DNA from: Octopus vulgaris | Lineage: Eukaryota | Length of the DNA: 64,000 nucleotides | Direction: 5' to 3' | Assembly: GCA_951406725.2 (NCBI GenBank) | Contig: OX597821.1 | Span: 80,352,001 to 80,416,000, forward strand | Shown: one piece after another, positions 3,878 through 55,785 of the stretch | Layout of the letters: every line of letters begins with the position of its first letter | Numbering within the stretch: the first letter of the stretch is position 1 | Notes under the pieces: generated by a model | Seen by the model: only the letters and a program-made list of their open reading frames with translations | The model's database searches: none | What the model was told of the DNA's origin: nothing | Translations under genes and position numbers: made by a program

Positions 3878-5200
3878 TTTCAGTAGTTTTATTTTTATAG
3901 CGTGCTTTCACTTCACTACCGAGCGCAGCTTTGTGTGCCTTGGGTATGTGCTGTGATTTGTTGTGATGCTCTGATGGTTATTGTATGGAAAGTGTTCTGC
4001 GTACGATGTGTGCAGTGCCTAGTAGTGCAATTTTCTGTATGTTATATGTGTTTGTAAGTCCTGGTGTTGTTGTTATGTATTTGTCTGAATATTTTTTATC
4101 ATGCCTAATGCACCTACTATGATAGGAATTGTTTCTGTTTTTAGATTCCACATTCTGGTTACCTCTATTTCTAGGTATTTGTATTTTGAAAGTTTCTCCA
4201 TTTCTTTTAGAGACACGTTGTCATCTGCCGCTATTGATACATCAATTAGAAAGCATTTTTTTTCTTCATGATCTCTGACAACTATATCTGGTCTGTTGGC
4301 CTTAATTTCTCTATCTGTGTGTATCGGCATATCCCAGAGTATGGTTGCTTTCTCGTTTTCTGTGACCTTTTCTGGTGTGTGCCTATACCATTTTTTTCTG
4401 TTGTTATTCCATAATGTTGGCATAACTTCCAGTGTATGTAGGTTCCAACTCTGTCATGCCTGTGAATATATTCCTTCTTAGCCAGGACTGGGCACCCAGA
4501 GATAATATGATTTATTGTTTCTTGTCCATCTCCACATATTCTGCAGTTACTTGTTATATTTCTTTTCATTACATGTTTTTGGTAATTTCTGGTGGGGAGG
4601 CTTTGGTCTTGTGCTGCAATTAAAAATCCCTCTGTCTCTGCTTTGAGTCCTGAGCTTCTCAACCATTGCTGGAATTTTTCTTTGTCTATTTCTTTTGCGT
4701 TTAGTTTAGTCCAGTATTTACCATGAAGGGGCTTTTCTTGCCATCGTTTTATCATGGTTCGTTGCTGTTCTGTTTTTAGTTTGGATTTCATTTGTTTTAT
4801 AGTTTTTGTTGTTTCTTCATCTTCTTCTTCTTTTTCATATTTATTAGGTGGTATTATTTCTTGTTTGTATTTGTCAGCTTCCTTAAATACTGAGAACAGT
4901 TTTTTGTTTTGCTCGTGTTTTGCCGCTATTTGTATCAGTTTTCCTTCCTTCTGAAGTATATATTTTTGCAGTCCTATGGTGGTTATTTTATAGTAGTTTT
5001 CCAGCTGTATAAGGCCTCTACCACCTTCTATACGTTGTATATATAGTCTTTCTATGTCAGATTTTGGGTGATGCATCCTAGATCCTGTCATTATTTTTCT
5101 TGTTTTCCTATCTACTTTGGTCAGTTCATTTAGTGTCCAGTTAAGGATATTGTAGCTGTAACTTATAACTGGGACAGCTAAAGTGTTAATACCTATTATC

Positions 5201-5202
<2 letters not shown>
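3878..5202 (-). mobile_element. 5'-truncated R4/Dong-like non-LTR retrotransposon (post-RT region, CCHC finger, restriction-like endonuclease), frameshifted
   Basis: Motifs CRICG..ETINHIISGC..YIHRHDRV, WDMPIHTDREIKANRPDIVV, LIDVS, EKLSKY, IPIIVGALG and ALLGTAHIVRRTL (stop ~3978). Flanked by (TAA)n on both sides. Confidence 0.92.
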
Positions 5203-5261
<59 letters not shown>

Positions 5262-5329
5262 ATGAAAACTCATTGCTTATTTGGCTGGGTATGATGGAAA
5301 GTGACAGCTCTCCACAGCCATAATGCTTA

Positions 5330-6285
5330 GTGGAACTTCTTTCGGATCTGCGTTCAAATTCAACCGAGGTCGACTTTACTTTTCATCCTTTCGGGGTCGA
5401 TAAAATAAGTACCGGTTGAGCACTAGGGGTTGGTGTAATCGGCTGGCCCCTGGTCCTAACTTGCTGGCCTTGTGCCAATATTTGAAAACGGAAAAAAGAA
5501 AAGCATAAGAAGGTGGTGAGCTGGCTGAATCGTTAACTCGCCCAGCAATAATGCTTGGCGGCGTCTCGTCCGTCTTTATGTTCCGAGTTCAAACTCCACC
5601 GAGGTCGATTTTGTCTTTCATCCTTTCGGAGCTGATAAAATAAGTACCAGTTACACACTGGGGTCCATATAATCGACTTAGCTCCTTCCCCAAACCTGCT
5701 GGCCTTGTGCCAAAATTTTAAATTATTATTATTATTATTATTATGAAGGCAGCGAGCAGGCAGAATCGTTAGCACGCCAGCCGAAGTGCCTAGTGCTATT
5801 TCATTAGTCCTTATGTTCTGAGTTCAAATTCTGCCGAGGTCGACTTTACCTGTCATCCTTTCGGGGTCGATTAAATAAGTACCAGTTATACAGTGGGATC
5901 GATGTAATTGACTTATCCCCCTCCTCGGAAATTCCAGGATTATTATTATCGTTATAAAAGCGGCGAGCTGGCAGAATCGTTAGCATGCCGGCCAAAATTC
6001 TTAGTGGTATTCCATCCGTCTTACTTTCTGAGTTCAAGTTCCGCCGAGAGCGACTTTGCTTTCATTATTTTGCGGTCGATAAAATAAGTACCAGTTGAAC
6101 ACTGGTGTTGATCTAATCGACTTTGCCCCTTCCCCCAAATTGCTGGCCTTGTGCCAAAATTTGAAACCATTCTTCTTCTTCTTCTTCTTCTTCTTCTTCT
6201 TCTTCTTCTTCTTCTTCTTCTTCTTCTTCTTCTTCTTCTTCTTCTTCTTCTCATTATTATTATTATTATCATTATCATTATTATT

Positions 6286-8151: not shown

Positions 8152-8227
<76 letters not shown>

Positions 8228-8232
<5 letters not shown>

Positions 8233-8405
8233 ATTCACAAAAAAACAGCAAAAGACGAAGACAGGTAGTGTAGACAACAAACAGATGTATTAGGTTAACA
8301 CGGTAAGGGAAAAAGTCATTAACGTTTCGAGCCTACGCTCTTCCACAGAAAGAAACAGGGAGAGAAAATAAAGAATGGGTAGTGGCTAGCGATCTATCAT
8401 GGCAC
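8228..8405 (-). mobile_element. Short (TA)n-flanked element with variant hammerhead motif (family H2)
   Basis: Homologous to 17698-17885, 27448-27575, 40648-40765, 41245-41370 and 49015-49172. Minus strand reads cttt CTGTGGAA GAGC gtag GCTC GAAA CG TT. Confidence 0.75.
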
Positions 8406-17658: not shown

Positions 17659-17697
<39 letters not shown>

Positions 17698-17700
<3 letters not shown>

Positions 17701-17885
17701 ACCATGATAGATCGTTAGCCACTACACACATTTTTTCTCTCCTTGTTTTTTCTGTGTCCCTATCTGTAGAAGAGCGTAGGCTCGAAACGTAAAGGACTTT
17801 TTCTATTCCTGAGCGTTATACTAATACATCTGTTTGTTTTGTACACCACCTGTCTTCGTCTTTTGTTTTTTCGTAAACTCTCCCT
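17698..17885 (+). mobile_element. Family H2 element, best-preserved copy
   Basis: (TA)n on both sides; homologous to five other copies in the window. Confidence 0.8.
17756..17797 (+). ncRNA. Minimal hammerhead-like motif with A6U core
   Basis: gtccctat CTGTAGA A GAGC gtag GCTC GAAA CG TA aaggac. Confidence 0.6.
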
Positions 17886-17919
17886 ATATATATATATATA
17901 TATATATATACATACACAT

Positions 17920-27447: not shown

Positions 27448-27448
<1 letters not shown>

Positions 27449-27575
27449 GAAGAGCGTGGGCTCGAAATATTAAAGACTTTTTCACTTCCCGAGCGTTGAA
27501 CTAATACATCTGTTTGTTGTCTACACCACCTGTCTTCGTCTTTTGTTTTGTTTTTTTTTGTGAATTCTCGCCCCC
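27448..27575 (+). mobile_element. Family H2 element, 5'-truncated
   Basis: gaagagcgtgggctcgaaa...acaccacctgtcttcgtcttttg; TA-flanked. Confidence 0.7.
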
Positions 27576-27576
27576 A

Positions 27577-27718
<142 letters not shown>

Positions 27719-40640: not shown

Positions 40641-41244
40641 GTCATTGGAAAGCGTAGGCTCGAAACGCAAAAGACTTTCTCACTTTCTCGAGCGTCAAAC
40701 TAACACACTTGCTTGTTGTTCACACACCTGTCTTCGTCTTTTGTTTTTCTCTAAATGTCAACCATATATTATACGCACACATGGTCACCCCAGCTTTATC
40801 CTGCTTTAATCTCCTACATTCCTACTGTCTGAACTTTCTACACCCCTCCTCATCTACATAGCACTCCACCCGGATTACCACTAGATATACTTATGGATTT
40901 CACTTGACTCTTTCGTTGATGAAAAATCGCTCCAATATACGACGACATTTGAACTTTGTTGAACTTTCTGCTTTTTCTTACACCGTACGTTGTTACTTTG
41001 CTTCTCTCTTTCTCCTTTTCTTCTTTTCGTCTTTTCTTCTTTTGTTCTCCTTTTCTCTCCGTTTCTTCTCTTTTTTCTCTTCACGAATTTTTAATTTTTT
41101 GAACTTTTATATTCCGTACGACATTGCTTTACCTTTCTCTCTCCTTTTCTTTTTTTCTTTTTTTTTTCCCAACTAGCCGCCATGCTTGATCACAAAATTT
41201 ACAAGTGTCTTTTTTTAATTCTCTCTCCGTTTATTTTATCGTAT

Positions 41245-41370
41245 TCCTTTCTGTTGAAGAGCGTAGACTCGAAACATAAAATACTTTCTCACTTTCCCGA
41301 ACGTCAAATTAATACACCTACTTGTTCATACACCTGTCTTCGTCTTTTGTTTTTCTGTAAATTTCAACTA
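41245..41370 (+). mobile_element. Family H2 element (another partial copy at 40648-40765)
   Basis: cttt CTGTTGAA GAGC gtag ACTC GAAA CA TA aaatac. Confidence 0.7.
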
Positions 41371-41438
41371 CACACACACACACACACACACAGACACACA
41401 CACACATACACACACACACACACAAAAACACACACAAA

Positions 41439-41693: not shown

Positions 41694-42133
41694 TGGACCG
41701 AGGAGCAGTTTGAGAGTTTAGTTTAGATTCTAGACCTTGTAGGCCTGCTCACCATCAACTATTCTACTTCTCAAGAAATGTTGGTAGAAAGGCGTTGTAT
41801 TTTACATGGAGAGGATAATATAATAATGGAATCCTAACGACTCTCTCTCCCTCTCTCACTCTCACACACACACACACACGATATAATACACGTAAATAAA
41901 ATGTAATGGTGTCAACCGAATATCGAAACCAAGAAGGAGTTTCCAACTGCCAACTATTTCTTGTTTGATAGTTGACGTTCGCCATTTTCCTCATCACATG
42001 GTACACCAATGCTCAAATTAAAACTAGCTTTATGGTTAAGAATCTCATTTCGTAACCAAGTGGTTTCGAGCTCAGTCTCACTAGGCGGCACCTTGGGCAA
42101 GTGTCTTCAATTATAGCCTCTGGCCGACAAGTG

Positions 42134-42409
42134 CCTAGTGAGTGAATTTGGCGAACGGAAACTGTGTGGAAGTCTCTCGTATATACATATATGTGAGTGT
42201 GTGTTCGTGTGTTTCTCTATGAGTGTGTGTGCATGTGTACACATATGTACGTATATAAGTATGTGTATATATATATATACATGTAGCTTGCTTACCAACC
42301 ACATGGTTCTGGGTTCAGTCCCACTGCGTGTCACCTTGGGCAAGTGTATTCTACTATAGCCACGGGCCGACGAAAGCCTTGTGAGTGGATTTGATAGACG
42401 GAAACTGGA

Positions 42410-42444
<35 letters not shown>

Positions 42445-42712
42445 GTATATGTATATCTATATGTTCGTGTGAGTTTGTGTGTCTGTGTTTGTCCCCCCAA
42501 CATCTCTTGACAACCGATGCTGGTGTGTTTACGTCCCCGTAACTTAGCGGTTCGGCAAAAGAGACCGATAGAATAAGTACTAGGCTTACAAAGAATAAGT
42601 CCTGGCGTCGATTTGCTCGACTAAAACACGGTGTTCCAGCATGGCCGCAGTCAAATGACTGAAACAAGTAAATGAGTAAATGAGTAAAAGAGTGTGTATA
42701 TATATGCTCACA

Positions 42713-42758
<46 letters not shown>

Positions 42759-43363
42759 CATATGCATATGTAAGTATCTATGTGTGTGTGTGTGTGTGTG
42801 TCTCAGTGTCTGCGTTTGTCACTCTGTTGCTTGACAACAAATGTTGGTTTGTTTGTGTCCCCGTCACTTTCAGCAAAAGAGACTGATAAAATAAGTTGCA
42901 AATCGCAAAAATAAAATAACTACTGGGGGTCGAATTGTTTCACTAAAAGCCCCAACAATGCGGTGCTCCAGCATGGTCGCAGTCCAACAGCCTGAAACAA
43001 CTTTTAAGAAAGACATACGATAAAACAATACCTAAATAACTAAGCTTCTTCAATTGCTTATTCCTTATTGATCCCTTGAGGACATGACCTAGTGAGTGAA
43101 TTTGGCGAACGGAAACTGTGTGGAAGTCTCTCGTATATACATATATGTGAGTGTGTGTTCGTGTGTTTCTCTATGAGTGTGTGTGCATGTGTACACATAT
43201 GTACGTATATAAGTATGTGTATATATATATATACATGTAGCTTGCTTACCAACCACATGGTTCTGGGTTCAGTCCCACTGCGTGTCACCTTGGGCAAGTG
43301 TATTCTACTATAGCCACGGGCCGACGAAAGCCTTGTGAGTGGATTTGATAGACGGAAACTGGA

Positions 43364-43398
<35 letters not shown>

Positions 43399-43665
43399 GT
43401 ATATGTATATCTATATGTTCGTGTGAGTTTGTGTGTCTGTGTTTGTCCCCCCAACATCTCTTGACAACCGATGCTGGTGTGTTTACGTCCCCGTAACTTA
43501 GCGGTTCGGCAAAAGAGACCGATAGAATAAGTACTAGGCTTACAAAGAATAAGTCCTGGCGTCGATTTGCTCGACTAAAACACGGTGTTCCAGCATGGCC
43601 GCAGTCAAATGACTGAAACAAGTAAATGAGTAAATGAGTAAAAGAGTGTGTATATATATGCTCAC

Positions 43666-43712
<47 letters not shown>

Positions 43713-44044
43713 CATATGCATATGTAAGTATCTATGTGTGTGTGTGTGTGTGTGTCTCAGTGTCTGCGTTTGTCACTCTGTTGCTTGACAACAAATGTTG
43801 GTTTGTTTGTGTCCCCGTCACTTTCAGCAAAAGAGACTGATAAAATAAGTTGCAAATCGCAAAAATAAAATAACTACTGGGGGTCGAATTGTTTCACTAA
43901 AAGCCCCAACAATGCGGTGCTCCAGCATGGTCGCAGTCCAACAGCCTGAAACAACTTTTAAGAAAGACATACGATAAAACAATACCTAAATAACTAAGCT
44001 TCTTCAATTGCTTATTCCTTATTGATCCCTTGAGGACATGACCT
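42134..44044 (+). repeat. 954-bp near-perfect tandem duplication containing several SINE A pieces
   Basis: Copies start at 42134 and 43088; cct microhomology at the junctions; at least one substitution in a CA tract. Confidence 0.95.
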
Positions 44045-48560: not shown

Positions 48561-49014
48561 TTCTCCATAGTGAATATGAACAGTGAGAATCAACAATTTA
48601 AAAAAATTTTCTACTCGTTTTAATGTTATAATTGTTTCATCCCTGATCGAATCAGACCAGTGATTCAAAGAATTTCCATTGTAACCACCAAATGTTTATT
48701 CCAGAGATACCCACGCTTACATTATCCAATGCGTCGTTTAGTTTTTAAAACAGTAGAATGTGGTTTCAGGTTAATTTGCTCGCAATTTCTTGTAGATATC
48801 GCAACTACGTTCTGGATACTGTTGATTTATTTCCCATAAAAGTGGTCTGGTGTTCTTGCGACAATTATTGGTATTGATTAAAGAGAGCATTTAATTACCC
48901 AATTTCTGTGTTGTTCCGGGAGTCACCAATTTCAAGATACGAATTCATCTCGAATCAGTCTTAGATATTCATACATGTATGCGTATATGTACATCCATAC
49001 AGCCAGCATACATA

Positions 49015-49172
49015 TAGGGAAAGTTTATGAAAAGAACAAAAGACGAAGACAGATGGTGTACAAAACAAACAGATGTATTAGTATAACGCTCAGGAATAGA
49101 ATAAGTCTTTTACGTTTTGAGCCTACGCTCTTCTACAGAAAGGGACACAGAAAAAACAAGGAGCGAAAAAGG
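49015..49172 (-). mobile_element. Family H2 element
   Basis: Minus strand gtcccttt CTGTAGAA GAGC gtag GCTC AAAA CG TA aaagac. Confidence 0.75.
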
Positions 49173-50792
49173 AGATACATACGTACATACATACATACAT
49201 ACATACATACATACATACATACATACGAACATACATACCTACATACATACATAAGACAGACAGACATACTATTGCGCAATAAGCTTATCTGCACACTGGA
49301 AGCAGGAGATATTCTGTAAATACTTTGCGTCTCTAACAAATGTTTGATGAAAATTACGATAAACCAAATGTTGGCCTCTGTCATTGGTCAGATTTTCACC
49401 AATGTCCCACCCTAGAATCGAAGTACTGGGATAGATTTTTAACTTCCTTGTTCCACGCCCTAAAAAAATATTCTTCGCTTACGACGTTTCGTGTACCCAT
49501 AGGTTTTTAATTATGTTCTCTCAAAACTCCCCTTGATTTCCATGTCGTCTCGTGAGAGATGCATTGGAAATATTTACGGAATATTTCCTGCATGCACATA
49601 ACGGTATTGCGCAGTTGCCTGTATGTATGTATGCAGGCCGTATGAATATATATACACACATGCACACACACATTCACGCACACACGTACACACACACATA
49701 TAACACACATGTATGTATATATTTTTATGTAAGAATAGGCCGACGATGATATAAATAAATATATCTCTCTATATATAAACGGCAGTTTGTCTGTGCGTGC
49801 TTCTGTGTGTCTGTTTTCTCGTACCCTCACCCTGACCACGGCTTTCAACCGATTCTGATGAAACTTGACACACACATAGCCCAATGTCATAATTCAAAAC
49901 TAACGCAGCGAAAATTTTGAAAAGTTCCCCCAGTTCTGAAATAAATTGATAAATTCGACATGGGGTCGAGAATCATAAACATGAACCACAGACTGTCTAG
50001 GGGACGCAACTCGAGAATCTAAGCTTTTTTTATGCAACGCATTATCTATGGTAGTTTTCACAACTTGCAATCGATTTTCACCAAACTCATGGTGAAGCTT
50101 AATGTTACCCTAAGAAACTCAATTCTGACGTTAGTTTTCCATGCAATACCTTACCATCAGAAACAATCGATAAAATCATGCCATTTTGGGAAATCGCGTT
50201 CAAATTCAAGATGACATATTTTCGACAATATCTTTCACAAATTGGCAGGAATCTTTTTTTTTTCACAACGAGTATCATGTCTGCTCCAAGGAGCCATATA
50301 GCCCTTTTTATTCCAATAGGATACATTATTGGAAAAAATCGGTTAATTTAATCATATGTGGCACACATAGCAAACAAATTTGTGTATTAAACACAAACCA
50401 GACTGTCTAGGGGACGCAACTTGACCTTTTTAGCTATCGATAATTCGATCCAACCAATTCCTACCAGGAAGAAATTACATTCGAGACTTTACCCCCAACA
50501 CCGCCACTTCTGCTAATAGCTGCTGCAGCCGCAAGTTATTCGAATACTTTTTTGGTTTAAACTTTCTTTATAACTACCACCCCAAACGTTTTACCTTCAA
50601 TTTTTGACGTACCCTAACGGTCCTCGGACGCTACTTGCAAACTCTTGGTTTATTATAAACCACTTTTGTCGTGTGCATCAAAAAACTTTTCCTTTCGTTT
50701 GTTCAGTTTGATCACTTTTGACTTTTTCGTTGTTGTCACTCACATTGCTGCCAGCTTTTTGGCCGTTTTTGTACATTTTTATACATTTTCGG

Positions 50793-50914
50793 ATACTTAC
50801 CCCACGAGCTCCTTTTTATTACACCTTTACCAAACACATTGCTATCCACCAAAATACTTACCCCACGTGTTCCTTTTTATTACACCTTTGCCAAACACAT
50901 TGCTATCCACCAAA
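50793..50914 (+). repeat. Two 61-bp tandem units immediately upstream of the Helitron ATG
   Basis: atacttaccccacg..tcctttttattacaccttt.ccaaacacattgctatccaccaaa occurs twice (50793, 50854). Confidence 0.9.
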
Positions 50915-51874
50915 ATGCCACCCAAGAAGAGAAGGACCCTCCTCAGCCCTCGGACGGCCAAGGCATCGGCTGCTAGGGCTAGAAGGGCACGCGAGACCCA
51001 CGAGGAAACCGCCTTGCGCCTCTCGCAAACAGCTTCCCGTTATGCCGCTGCTCAGGCATCTGAAACTACTAGCGACCGTTCTACCCGACTTGCAAGGGTC
51101 GCAGCGTACAGATCTTCCCTCCGCTCGAGGTTGACGAAAGAGCAACAGTCCAGCCAAAACATGCGGGCTTCTTACTGTGCTTCCATCCGCAGAGCTCGCG
51201 AGAACCACGAACAAAGGGCCATTCGGAATGCGGCTAACGCCACTAGCACTGCCAGGACACGATCTGTCGAAACCTCACAGCAGAGGAGAACTCGCCAAGA
51301 TGCTGACGCCGCAAACAAAGCCATGGCCAAAGCTGCCGAAACACCTCAACAGAGGAGAGCTCGCCAAGCTGCTAACGCCGCAAACACAGCCAGGGCTCGA
51401 TCTGCCGAAACTCCACACCAACGGACTATTCGGACATCCAGACATGCCATTAACATTGCTTCTGCTAGGGCTTCAGAGGGTGCTGAGGCGAGAGCTGAAA
51501 GGCTTTCAAGGGATGCCACTGCTACCGCTGTCGCACGTGCATCTGAATCTGCTGAGGCACGGTGCACTCGACTTGAGAGTATCAACAAACGTCGGGATAT
51601 CATTCGTGGTGTACGTACCCCTGCCCCCGCTTTCTGGTTGTCACTAGCATTCAACTACGACGCCACAATTAACTTCTCCTTGCGTGACGACATCAAGATA
51701 GGGTCAATGACAATTGTATGCCAGTTTTGCAAAGCCAAGAAATGGCCCGGAGAGCCACCTGGTTTGTGCTGCTCTGGTGGCAAAGTGGACCTGCCACCCC
51801 TACGGGAACCACCTCAACCACTGAAGGATCTCGCGGCGGGTTTAACCCCGATTCGTCACAATTCCTTGAAATAA
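50915..51874 (+). CDS. Helitron RepHel N-terminal part: NLS-like PPKKRR, ~23-aa STPR-like repeats, Zn finger
   Basis: ETPQQRRARQAANAANTARARSA-type repeats; CQFCKAKKWPGEPPGLCCSGGKV. The ATG at 50915 is more plausible than the TTG at 50645. Confidence 0.85.
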   Translation: MPPKKRRTLLSPRTAKASAARARRARETHEETALRLSQTASRYAAAQASETTSDRSTRLARVAAYRSSLRSRLTKEQQSSQNMRASYCASIRRARENHEQRAIRNAANATSTARTRSVETSQQRRTRQDADAANKAMAKAAETPQQRRARQAANAANTARARSAETPHQRTIRTSRHAINIASARASEGAEARAERLSRDATATAVARASESAEARCTRLESINKRRDIIRGVRTPAPAFWLSLAFNYDATINFSLRDDIKIGSMTIVCQFCKAKKWPGEPPGLCCSGGKVDLPPLREPPQPLKDLAAGLTPIRHNSLK

Positions 51875-54800
51875 TTCGAAAGTACAACTGCTCATTCCAA
51901 ATGACCTCTTTCGGGGCCAAAATTCCTCCCAGAGAAGGCTGGATGCCTACTTTCAAAGTGCAGGGACAGGTCTACCATCTTATTGGGTCACTTCTGCCGG
52001 ACGAGATTCAGCAGTCTTCTTTCCTCCAAATATACTTCATTGCCGACTACAACCACCAGGTTGATGCACGCCTTGGAATAATACCGGGTACAAGCTATGT
52101 TCCCCGCAAAGACATTCTTCTCCGTCTCCAAACCATGCTTCATGATATCAACAGCTACGTCTGCAGCTTCAGATATGCCTTGGACAGTGCTCCATCTCCA
52201 AACTTCACCGTTGTCATTGATGCTGATAAACGACCCCACGGGGAGCACGAACGCCGTTTCAACGCACCTGCGTGCAACGAAATTGCCGCAGTTATACACG
52301 GAGAGCAACACAACAGCCGTGACATAATCATCTCCTCCCGTGGTAACAACCTACACAGGATCAGCGAGACTCACAGATCTTATGACGCGCTTCAGTATCC
52401 ATTGCTTTTCCCTTATGGGGAAGACGGCTACCACTTCGGAATTCCTTTACGGCAGCCCTCCAATCAAACTACTGCGGCATCAAAGACGGTTTCCTGCAGG
52501 GCGTTCTACTCATACCGGTTCATGGTCAGGGAGGGTGAGTTCAACTTATTGCCCCGTTGTCGTCAGCTATTCAACCAGTTCGCCGTCGACATGGCCGCAA
52601 GAATGGAATCGGAAAGGCTGCTATACATTAAACTTAATCAGACCAAACTTCGCTCCGACTCCTACATTCATCTCCGTGACGGTTTGCAACAAGAAAATGA
52701 CCCTCGCAACATCGGCAAGCCATGCATTCTACCCTCCACCTTCACGGGAGGACCGCGATATATGCGTGAAAGGACCCAAGACGCCTTGACCTACGTGCGC
52801 ATTTACGGCCGGCCGGACCTCTTTATCACCTACACGTGCAATCCCAGCTGCGACGAAATCACTCGCGAACTCCTCCCGGGTCAATCTCACACCCATCGAC
52901 ACGACATCGTTGCTAGGGTTTTCCGTCTGAATTTGGGCAAAATGAAGGATTTGATAGTTAAGGGTCAGATTTTCGGGCATGTCAGGTGCCACATGTTTTC
53001 GGTCGAGTGGCAAAAGAGGGGCTTGCCACATGCTCACATCTTAATTTGGCTCACTCATAAAATCGAGACTAATGACATTGACAAATTCATTTCTGCCGAG
53101 ATTCCTGACCCCGATGAGGACCCCGGACTCTACGAAATTGTCCGCACTACCATGGTACACGGGCCCTGTGGACCAAATTACGCCAACACACCATGCTACA
53201 AAAACGGATTAGCCTGCTCAAAGGGATTCCCTAAACGGTTCACTTTGGAGACTCAAACAGGCGGCGATGGGTATCCGCTGTACAAACGAAGGAGTCCAGC
53301 CAATGGAGGCCGCACGATTACGGTTGGGCGACATCAAGTGGACAACAGCTACATTGTCCCCTACTGTCCTCTCCTGTCGAAGATATTCAAAGCCCACGTC
53401 AACGTTGAGTTCTGCAGCTCCATCAGGTCAATACAATATGTCTGCAAATATATCAACAAAGGCAGCGATGCTGCCATGTTCAGCATCCAGAGGACCACCA
53501 GTCGCGACGAAGTGTCCAACTACTTGGCTGGCCGGTACCTCAGCAGCAACGAAGCGTTTTGGCGCATTTACGGCTTCCCGCTCCATCAGAGACACCCGGC
53601 TGTGGTGCAGCTTGCTGTACACTTGGAAAATGGACAGCGGATTTACTTCACAGAGCAAAGTGCTGTGCAGATAGCCACCAGCCCTAAAGACACAACGTTG
53701 ACTGGTTTCTTCAAATTATGCCAACGTGATGACTTCGCTCGAACGCTTTTGTACCCACAGGTCCCATCGTACTTCGTGTGGTCTAAAAACACCTGGGTTC
53801 GACGGAAATCCGGCAAAAACGTCGAAAGCTTCCCAGGCGTCAAGTTTGACTCCTGCCTGGGTCGAGTTTACAACATCCCGCCAAACCAGCAAGAATGCTT
53901 CTACCTCCGTCTCCTTCTACATGAGGTCACTGGTCCAACAGGTTTCGCCAATATACGTACCGTCAATGGGGTTCTGTGCGACACCTTCAGGGAAGCATGT
54001 ATGAGACTTGGCCTTCTAGAGGATGACTCCCAGTGGGACGCCACGATGGCAGAGGGTGCTTTACTGCAAACGCATTCGGCCCTACGACATCTTTTCGCAA
54101 TCCTTCTTCAAAAATGTCAGCTTAGTGATCCACTAAGTCTCTGGATGAAATACAGGGATGACATGTCGCACGACTTCTTACGTACGGCTCAGCAACACTG
54201 CCCTTCCGCCGAGATCACGTTCACCAACTTCATTTACAATTTTGCGCTCATTCAACTCGAAGACGCTGTCATCGATATGGGTGGGTCTGCTTTAACAGAG
54301 TACGGCCTTCCACCACCCACACGTGAACACGCCAATGTTATGTCTGCTGAATTGTTACGCGAAACTTCCTACTGCATTGAGGAACTGCACCAGTACGTCC
54401 AAGATAATGAACCACGACTGCTTCCAGACCAGCGCATAGCCTACAACACCATCGTAGACTCTGTCAGACAGCAACGTGGGGGGATTTTCTTCCTTGATGC
54501 ACCCGGCGGCACTGGCAAAACCTTCGTCACTAAACTAATTCTGGCGGAGGTCAGACGCAACACGGACATTGCCCTGGCTGTAGCTTCCTCTGGTATCGCG
54601 GCCACGTTGCTTCCGGGTGGCAGAACCGCCCACTCTGCCTTCAGACTCCCGCTCGATCTGGCAAAGTCCGAGTCACCTATCTGCAACATCGCCAAGAACT
54701 CAGAACAGGCCGACATTCTGCGCAGATGCAAACTCATCGTATGGGACGAGTGCACTATGGCACACAAAGGCGCCCTTGAGGCACTGGACAGGTCCCTGCA

Positions 54801-55785
54801 AGACATCAGAGACTCTACGGCCCCCATGGGAGGATTAACTTTACTTCTTTCAGGAGACTTCAGGCAGACTCTACCTGTTATTCCAAAAGGAACCCGTGCC
54901 GATGCCGTGCGCGCGTGCCTTAAGTCGTCAGCTCTTTGGGCACATGTGCGGCCCTTGCACCTCCAAACTAACATGCGCGCGCAGTTAATTGGTGACAGCG
55001 GATCCGCTGCATTCTCCAGGGACCTCTTATCGCTCGGTGAAAATAGGATGCTGTCTGATGCGGATGGCTACGTTCAATTGGACTCACTTTGCACCATTGT
55101 CGACACCCCTGCTAGCCTCCGGGACGCTGTCTTCCACGACCTACAAAACAATTTACGCGACCTAAAATGGCTGGCAGGCAGAGCTATTCTCGCACCCAAA
55201 AATACAACCGTCAACTCCATCAATATCCAGCTACTTGAAGCTATTCCTGGTGATGTCCACGTCTACAAATCTATAGATAGGACAGCAGACCCCGCCCAGC
55301 TTGCCGATTATCCTGTTGAATTCCTGAATTCACTTGAACCGCCAGGCCTGCCACCACACATCCTGAAGTTAAAAGTCGGTGCGCCCATTATGCTCATCAG
55401 GAATTTGGTTCCACCTAAACAGTGCAACGGCACACGTTTGGTTGTGAAACATTTGGCACCACATTTAATAACGGCCACAATACTTACCGGTTGTGGGAAG
55501 GGAGAGGACGTCTTCATTCCACGGATGCACCTTCAACCGTCGGGCGCTGACCTACCAATCCACTTCAGGCGTTCTCAGTTTCCTGTTAAACTCTGCTTCG
55601 CAATGTCCATCAATAAATCCCAAGGCCAAACGCTACAAGTCGCTGGGTTACATTTGGGCGAACAGTGCTTCGCCCACGGTCAACTCTACGTGGGCTGTTC
55701 ACGCGTTGGGAGGTGCAATGATGTTTTCATGATTTCGCCCAAACGGACAGCTAGGAACATCGTATATACAGAAGTATTCCAGTGA
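51838..55785 (+). CDS. Helitron Rep (HUH endonuclease) plus Pif1 helicase, in the -1 frame relative to the upstream ORF (open from 51718)
   Basis: Rep motifs DLFITYTCNP, VEWQKRGLPHAHILIWL, YVCKYINKG. Helicase motifs LDAPGGTGKT, IVWDEC, GDFRQTLPV, QFPVKLCFAMSINKSQGQT, HGQLYVGCSRV. No internal stops. Confidence 0.97.
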   Translation, partial: GFNPDSSQFLEIIRKYNCSFQMTSFGAKIPPREGWMPTFKVQGQVYHLIGSLLPDEIQQSSFLQIYFIADYNHQVDARLGIIPGTSYVPRKDILLRLQTMLHDINSYVCSFRYALDSAPSPNFTVVIDADKRPHGEHERRFNAPACNEIAAVIHGEQHNSRDIIISSRGNNLHRISETHRSYDALQYPLLFPYGEDGYHFGIPLRQPSNQTTAASKTVSCRAFYSYRFMVREGEFNLLPRCRQLFNQFAVDMAARMESERLLYIKLNQTKLRSDSYIHLRDGLQQENDPRNIGKPCILPSTFTGGPRYMRERTQDALTYVRIYGRPDLFITYTCNPSCDEITRELLPGQSHTHRHDIVARVFRLNLGKMKDLIVKGQIFGHVRCHMFSVEWQKRGLPHAHILIWLTHKIETNDIDKFISAEIPDPDEDPGLYEIVRTTMVHGPCGPNYANTPCYKNGLACSKGFPKRFTLETQTGGDGYPLYKRRSPANGGRTITVGRHQVDNSYIVPYCPLLSKIFKAHVNVEFCSSIRSIQYVCKYINKGSDAAMFSIQRTTSRDEVSNYLAGRYLSSNEAFWRIYGFPLHQRHPAVVQLAVHLENGQRIYFTEQSAVQIATSPKDTTLTGFFKLCQRDDFARTLLYPQVPSYFVWSKNTWVRRKSGKNVESFPGVKFDSCLGRVYNIPPNQQECFYLRLLLHEVTGPTGFANIRTVNGVLCDTFREACMRLGLLEDDSQWDATMAEGALLQTHSALRHLFAILLQKCQLSDPLSLWMKYRDDMSHDFLRTAQQHCPSAEITFTNFIYNFALIQLEDAVIDMGGSALTEYGLPPPTREHANVMSAELLRETSYCIEELHQYVQDNEPRLLPDQRIAYNTIVDSVRQQRGGIFFLDAPGGTGKTFVTKLILAEVRRNTDIALAVASSGIAATLLPGGRTAHSAFRLPLDLAKSESPICNIAKNSEQADILRRCKLIVWDECTMAHKGALEALDRSLQDIRDSTAPMGGLTLLLSGDFRQTLPVIPKGTRADAVRACLKSSALWAHVRPLHLQTNMRAQLIGDSGSAAFSRDLLSLGENRMLSDADGYVQLDSLCTIVDTPASLRDAVFHDLQNNLRDLKWLAGRAILAPKNTTVNSINIQLLEAIPGDVHVYKSIDRTADPAQLADYPVEFLNSLEPPGLPPHILKLKVGAPIMLIRNLVPPKQCNGTRLVVKHLAPHLITATILTGCGKGEDVFIPRMHLQPSGADLPIHFRRSQFPVKLCFAMSINKSQGQTLQVAGLHLGEQCFAHGQLYVGCSRVGRCNDVFMISPKRTARNIVYTEVFQ

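Follow-up and report, generated by a model that had tools for sequence, protein, structure and literature searches.

The role of hammerhead ribozymes in Penelope-like elements (PLEs) is an open question, on which the 42-nt motif at positions 17756 to 17797 of the DNA described here bears. The window, by which we mean the whole 64,000-nt stretch of Octopus vulgaris DNA analysed, contains several copies of a hammerhead-like motif with the core CUGUNGA, where U replaces the normally invariant A6. The original prediction was that this pattern reflects selection on a hammerhead fold with a family-wide core substitution rather than random decay, and that the motif is either a natural variant ribozyme or a catalytically dead fold kept for another role. 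We consider which element carries the motif, whether U6 is the state of the family as a whole, and what this implies for cutting.

A minimal hammerhead in the terminal repeat of a Penelope-like element

The focal motif is a minimal type I hammerhead, and the terminal repeat (pLTR) in which it lies belongs to a Penelope-like retrotransposon. Its parts, and the other copies in the window, are as follows.

17699..17884, plus strand: 5'-truncated 3' end (pLTR fragment, 186 bases) of a Neptune/Nematis-type PLE, A7 subfamily, between two (TA)n runs; from 17699 it matches both pLTRs of the full-length unit L296
17756..17763, plus strand: stem I 5' arm, 4 bp beside the core, a variable 2-nt bulge and possibly 2 bp more; private T>A at 17762
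17764..17771, plus strand: core C3 U4 G5 U6 A7 G8 A9 and an extra unpaired A; U6 is 17767 and N7 is 17768
17772..17783, plus strand: stem II, 4 bp with G10.1-C11.1 as first pair, and a 4-nt loop; pairing probability 1.00 in the 42-nt fold
17784..17791, plus strand: G12 A13 A14, palindromic A15.1-C15.2-G16.2-U16.1, and H17 (A, at 17791); predicted cut after 17791
17792..17797, plus strand: stem I 3' arm; private A>G at 17794
17810..17815, plus strand: YGAGCG box, ~20-35 nt 3' of the cut site
17885..17909, no strand: (TA)n microsatellite at the 3' end of the element, the insertion target; the other (TA)n run is at 17663-17697
8217..8402, minus strand: second copy, core CUGUGGA, H17 = U, C3 at 8348
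27448..27581, plus strand: copy truncated within the core, beginning at N7
40646..40769, plus strand: copy without the 5' core strand
41161..41374, plus strand: older-subfamily copy, core CUGUUGA, C3 at 41251
49008..49170, minus strand: A7-subfamily copy, core CUGUAGA, C3 at 49138, G12>A by CpG decay

Six copies in the window thus carry all or part of the hammerhead layout, as had been proposed, two of them 5'-truncated or damaged (27452 and 40650, both plus strand). T occupies position 6 in all four copies that keep the 5' core, and N7 varies among them, being A at 17764 (+), T at 41251 (+), A at 49138 (-) and G at 8348 (-). The two minus-strand sites stand, although their C3 positions are 49138 and 8348, and the values 49131 and 8341 first given for them are the low ends of the respective 8-mers. 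The extra unpaired base after A9 is typical of PLE minimal hammerheads, and by the dimer logic developed for these RNAs (PMC4209133) stem III of the focal motif is predicted to form only in a dimer. The focal copy itself is decayed, since 17762 T>A and 17794 A>G are private changes against more than 97% of the depth in four runs, and its stem I has a pairing probability of 0.00. Because these two changes break stem I, the argument that follows rests on the family.

Copies with longer 5' parts enter a same-strand frame encoding a reverse transcriptase (RT), a C-x4-C-x2-C linker and a GIY-YIG endonuclease (EN), and the motif lies in the sense orientation behind this frame, in agreement with the PLE origin first suggested. 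The single ORF, with RT followed by a C-terminal GIY-YIG, has the organisation of an EN+ PLE. A Pfam run on the element protein returned RVT_1 (E 1e-7) and, below the cut-off, GIY-YIG (E 0.005), the GIY-YIG motif being present; a run on a truncated ORF gave zero matches. Neptune and Nematis elements are described as having a CX2-5CxxC linker between RT and EN and as targeting microsatellites (Craig et al., 2021, PMC8557442), and by these criteria the linker in the ORF and the (TA)n runs at the 3' ends of the copies assign the element to the Neptune/Nematis type. Homologues of its protein are found in coral, snails and sea urchin as unnamed or uncharacterised proteins. Searching the octopus genome with the protein gave 12,831 candidates, of which 150 were scored, most with one identical score.

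Full-length units were surveyed at twenty places chosen for long frames (L280-L299). There we found 16 units of 4.4-4.6 kb, each bounded by two motifs, with a median divergence of 0.4% over 2 kb; the hammerhead lies in pseudo-LTRs of partial tandems, as expected for PLEs, with three in a row at L284. Frames of 1,064-1,079 aa with all three protein motifs are intact at 11 of the 19 start codons located. The core is CUGUUGA in all 35 young-type motifs at these places, and U6 is present in both repeats of intact young full-length units. The next start codon is found ~740 nt 3' of the motif. Copies terminate at a TA run ~100 nt beyond the cut site, and in full-length units this run falls inside the element. 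One unit, L298, is a hybrid that combines a young-subfamily repeat upstream with an older-subfamily body and 3' repeat, and it differs by 3% from the other units.

The window also contains features unconnected with this family. A Helitron occupies 50618-55782 (+), with a 1,365-aa frame carrying Helitron_like_N and PIF1 helicase and preceded by a 418-aa STPR-repeat frame. Two near-identical tandem blocks of ~950 bases, in a microsatellite-rich repeat, lie at 42110-43756 (-), and 4285-5382 (-) holds part of a non-LTR retrotransposon frame that matches zf-RVT weakly.

Position 6 across the genome and among relatives

We counted the family across 2.8 Gb of genome with a 25-mer in which positions 6 and 7 were left free, accepting exact matches only. 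The 25-mer has 18,333 matches, compared with 0 for the reversed control, and U6 is the state in 17,610 of them (96.1%). A canonical core therefore fails as a description of the family, with A6 in only 226 matches, about twice the 119 returned for the control change U4>A; C or G stands at position 6 in the remaining 497. The youngest subfamily, which bears most directly on whether U6 is a product of age, has U6 in 3,164 of 3,177 exact 34-mers, and 2 of the 13 exceptions are A6.

We also scored copies without selection on the core. This sample comprises 112 copies, found mostly through a 3' flank motif or neighbouring DNA, that were left after removing 49 core-selected copies from 161 scored; it includes up to five copies from L155-L159, which are near-identical, decayed, share their flanks and represent a segmental duplication at 21.1-22.3 Mb of C1. 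U6 is present in 96/101, alongside C3 (100/100), U4 (98/100), G5 (95/100), G8 (102/103) and A9 (103/103), while N7 is distributed over all four letters (A 41, U 28, G 24, C 9). On the 3' side, A13 (107/108), A14 (106/108) and U16.1 (105/109) are similarly constant, G12 (97/108) is subject to CpG decay, and H17 (A 81, U 26, C 1, G 1) is non-G in all but one copy. Contigs from four runs under three organism codes, which may be the same or close species, have other letters at position 6 at 2% or less, and at N7 show three letters at 7-24% each. The layout of a PLE minimal type I hammerhead, comprising stem I, stem II, the extra base, G10.1-C11.1 and palindromic 15.2-16.2, is found paired in 89% of cells, compared with 17-49% in slid controls, and in stem II 98% of cells are paired. 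The expectation that standard motif searches would miss this core was borne out, in that Rfam shows no hammerhead family among the best 150 of 498 matches; a second search with Rfam covariance models returned only two chance matches and no hammerhead.

Relatives of the family suggest the direction of change. A sister PLE-like family with a 3-nt loop II has 13,944 matches (for example L176:1492-1631 (+), among L170-L199), and in the first 100 of these A6 is present in 98 and U4C in 71. Eighty metagenome loci encoding related proteins contain 15 minimal hammerheads (10 canonical, 4 U4C, 1 G6 and 0 U6), so that A6 is kept in 14 of 15, and five shuffles of these loci gave 0 motifs. The related elements share the layout and have unrelated stem sequences. 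Because both the sister family and related elements elsewhere keep A6, it is likely that A6 is ancestral and was lost early in the U6 lineage. The oldest subfamily (L330-L343) has U 79, C 14, A 6 and G 1 at position 6 in the first 100 of its 594 matches, C6, the variant with a preference for Mn2+ that a phage is known to carry, being at 14% compared with 0-4% for U>C at nearby U positions; its 14 C6 and 6 A6 copies form no clade and share no convincing diagnostic column within the element. A surviving A6 subfamily, which we looked for, is improbable, as A6 copies are scattered at the tips of the motif tree over all subfamilies. The sister family also includes a G17 sublineage, canonical in the rest of its core, with 200 exact copies (L183, L185, L098, L065).

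The YGAGCG box downstream of the motif is conserved in all the sister families of this genome, whether A6U, U4C or canonical, with variation at its first base limited to U and C. In related elements of other organisms, the 45 nt following the cut site showed no such box. Its sequence complements G12 and the stem II 3' strand, so a competing fold may be possible. Unrelated families have hammerhead-like motifs of their own at L299:8008 (+), L169, L035 and L100, one of them canonical with a palindromic insert in stem III.

Constraint on the fold and its possible capacity to cut

To compare the motif with its surroundings, subfamilies were clustered on flank columns alone, giving six with at least 6 members. 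Among these, 41/92 flank columns differ, compared with 0/29 core and stem columns, and variation inside the motif is found at N7, at H17, at two positions in the bulge and at the outermost base of stem I. When half of the flank columns were held out, using 243 of 298 copies and dropping four of the five L155-L159 copies, 0/11 core and 0/18 stem columns varied among 6-8 subfamilies, compared with 22-23 of 45-47 flank columns (Fisher p 0.002-0.004 for core against flank); N7 took 3-4 states in this comparison and H17 was only A or U. Loop II, too, hardly varies between subfamilies. The core is thus more conserved than the flanks, and because core and stems are unchanged while about half of the held-out flank columns vary, the comparison indicates that they are under selection, with N7, H17 (A or U) and the stem I bulge free.

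The case for U6 itself is different. A tree of 111 of 241 motifs, built with positions 4 and 6 masked, is ladder-like with many weakly supported forks, and along it N7 runs U, C, G, A, C, U (five changes) and H17 runs A, U, A, U (three changes). U6 never changed along this lineage, which argues weakly for its selection, as 36/92 flank columns (39%, in a count where L155-L159 form a seventh cluster) never changed either; selection for U6 itself does not follow from its invariance. The original prediction of selection on a hammerhead fold with a core substitution therefore holds for the fold, whereas for U6 it reduces to an invariance matched by those flank columns. We looked among subfamilies for a linked second-site core change accompanying U6 and found none. 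Covariation is modest, with two-sided change in 1/8 pairs and 42/500 shuffles as high, and the sole swap is from C-G to G-C in stem I between sister families.

Several other accounts of the pattern were considered and set aside. Random decay as the origin of U6 is ruled out by the genome-wide counts, the held-out test and the young subfamily. By inspection, N7 is not free as the third codon position of an antisense frame, since the protein is on the same strand and located elsewhere, nor as part of a reverse-strand splice acceptor, which would free the base at position 6 and not N7. A core-opened or permuted hammerhead using a downstream CUGA or CCGA was rejected by inspection, because the preceding base C cannot pair with A1.1 and there is no conserved stem.

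We considered whether insertion junctions carry a trace of cutting. Foreign junctions at the cut site of the U6 family account for 8 of 26 filtered matches from 10,133 copies, with no pile-up in a count that has no positive control, and for about 8/18 matches from 9,091 copies of the A6 sister family, judged on six matched letters, with no peak. A hand count of 90 rows, excluding the double-CpG class, gives 8, 10 and 5 TA-flank junctions at 1.1, 1.2 and 1.3. Because the A6 sister family is equally without a pile-up, these counts neither support nor refute cutting. Fourteen sequence sets of putative RNA origin, all of them contigs, gave no evidence on introns or RNA ends. Folding predictions show that a U6-A15.1 pair can close the monomer, with a probability of 0.4-0.98 in U6 copies and 0 in A6 copies. 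This pairing adds just 0.2 kcal/mol of stability in the U6/A7 and U6/C7 subfamilies, and the A6 sister motifs have equally strong predicted competing folds. We discarded a U6-A15.1 lock as the reason for A6U, the effect being weak outside the U7 subfamilies.

The reading we favour, with slightly better than even confidence, is that the motif is a strongly slowed self-cutting RNA that would need a dimer and the element's protein, in other words an attenuated ribozyme in a recently spread PLE. We favour it because the core changes that have spread (A6U, U4C, G17) fall where published variants keep low activity, while the other core letters are fixed. A U4C hammerhead is active in vivo and an A6C hammerhead has a kobs <0.1/min (PMC3088659); A6C is reported down to 3.6e-6/min in Mg2+ and largely rescued by Mn2+ (PMC7151607), and a G17 hammerhead is active when tertiary-stabilised (PMC3884650). 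PLE minimal hammerheads are slow and need dimers even with A6 (PMC4209133), and a lizard PLE hammerhead is reported to cleave only with the element's protein (PMC11167929). A6, on this model, would have been ancestral and lost early in the lineage; new copies would likely arise from uncut RNA, with priming ~100 nt downstream of the motif, so that fast cutting would be unneeded and a weak core tolerated; and low-level cutting, perhaps at a late step or in setting RNA levels, would keep G5, G8, A9, G12, A13, A14 and the cut-site letters. Internal priming in the lizard PLE, with no reads ending at the cut site (PMC11167929), fits the TA-run ends ~100 nt past the motif and the lack of a pile-up here. 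Against an attenuated ribozyme, a non-catalytic hairpin formed through U6-A15.1 would also explain the conserved core letters, and covariation is thin.

A hairpin of this kind could be the whole function. Cutting would then have ceased after A6U, with U4-G5-U6 pairing to A15.1-C15.2-G16.2 in one extended hairpin that would be retained for its structure, perhaps as a site bound by the RT-endonuclease or as a stability element. This is the main rival, and in our estimation the less likely of the two. The closed hairpin arises through U6 and has a predicted probability of 0.98 in U6/U7 copies, those of the youngest subfamily among them; CUGA mutants are reported to be weak (PMC9901934), catalytic mutants of the lizard PLE hammerhead remain able to insert in vitro (PMC11167929), a canonical hammerhead is described as absent from most of the Naiad and Chlamys PLEs that have spread (PMC8557442), and the junctions of U6 and A6 sister copies alike carry no cut-site footprint. 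However, C3, U16.1 and a non-G H17, which are relevant to catalysis and unpaired in the hairpin, are also held (each alone being non-significant), and the small stability gain and the competing folds of the A6 sister, described above, weigh on the same side. We are more doubtful of a protein-gated model, in which U6 would pair with A15.1 and so keep the free RNA silent until the RT-endonuclease opened it to cut at a chosen step, an adaptive change fixed more than once in animal Penelope elements; if this were true, core-based searches would miss a whole class of transposon ribozymes. That U6 cuts at a normal biological rate, compensated by protein, Mn2+ or a tertiary contact made either between loop II and the stem I bulge or by the YGAGCG box, seems to us improbable. 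The persistence of U6 across the subfamily ladder while N7 and H17 changed, the Mn2+ rescue of A6C, the protein-assisted lizard hammerhead and the conservation of the box across families would all be in keeping with it, but the box is also found in A6 families and so is not a compensation specific to A6U, no linked core change was found, and in the published pairwise mutagenesis no double mutant is reported to have rescued the CUGA turn (PMC9901934). Least probable is a constraint on the DNA or primary sequence, such as a pLTR promoter or protein-binding site lying over a hammerhead relic with no RNA fold. A promoter has been located in PLE pLTRs (PMC8557442), and the near-invariant loop II and weak covariation would suit such a site; yet it is precisely N7, H17 and the stem I bulge that are free to vary, stem I has swapped C-G for G-C between sister families, and related elements keep the layout with unrelated stem sequences.

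Relation to known hammerheads and Penelope-like elements

The U6 lineage appears to have lost an invariant base early and kept the rest of the motif fixed, yet it includes thousands of near-identical young copies with intact frames. The presence of U6, A6, U4C and G17 in one genome provides a natural comparison for asking if cutting is required, deliberately slowed or given up. Lunse, Weinberg and Breaker reportedly described, in 2016/17, small PLE-associated hammerhead variants that cleave as dimers, sharing a reduced stem III and the PLE association with the octopus motif, in what is said to be the largest survey of PLE hammerhead variants. Our literature search, which lay outside that survey, found no published natural A6U hammerhead, and the survey may bear on this point. 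Should U6 prove to cut, the consensus of the hammerhead core would have to be broadened along with the search descriptors; otherwise the fold would have another, non-catalytic function. Either outcome is of specialist interest, as the dispensability of cutting in vitro has already been published for the lizard PLE (PMC11167929).

A close structural parallel is with the PLE minimal hammerheads (PMC4209133), which likewise lie in both flanking repeats, have the extra base between A9 and stem II, the G10.1-C11.1 pair, palindromic 15.2-16.2 and a short stem I, occur mostly as solitary truncated fragments, and have a predicted requirement for dimers. Unlike them, the octopus family has U6 family-wide, the core exception described there being U3-A8, and its stem II is only 4 bp. 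The searched passages of the supplement to that study have no octopus entry and no CUGU core; two of its three 'CUGU' matches are listed, both outside the core. A natural substitution at position 6 also occurs in the A6C hammerhead of phage Bcep176, whose activity is reported as low but detectable (PMC3088659, PMC7151607). That case concerns C rather than U in a single phage motif, whereas the octopus U6 is fixed throughout a transposon family whose copies number in the tens of thousands.

Among the elements themselves, the Poseidon PLE of Anolis (PAc; Frangieh et al., 2024, PMC11167929) is similar in its RT with C-terminal GIY-YIG, its tandem units, its internal priming at AT-rich targets and the lack of ends at the cut site. 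It differs in belonging to the Poseidon clade and in having a hammerhead that overlaps the start codon, with no A6 change mentioned in the available part of that report. The Neptune and Nematis EN+ PLEs (Craig et al., 2021, PMC8557442) share with the octopus element the C-terminal GIY-YIG, the Cys linker, microsatellite targeting and partial tandems. Canonical hammerheads are stated in that work to be universal in such PLEs, and to this the octopus U6 family is a large exception.
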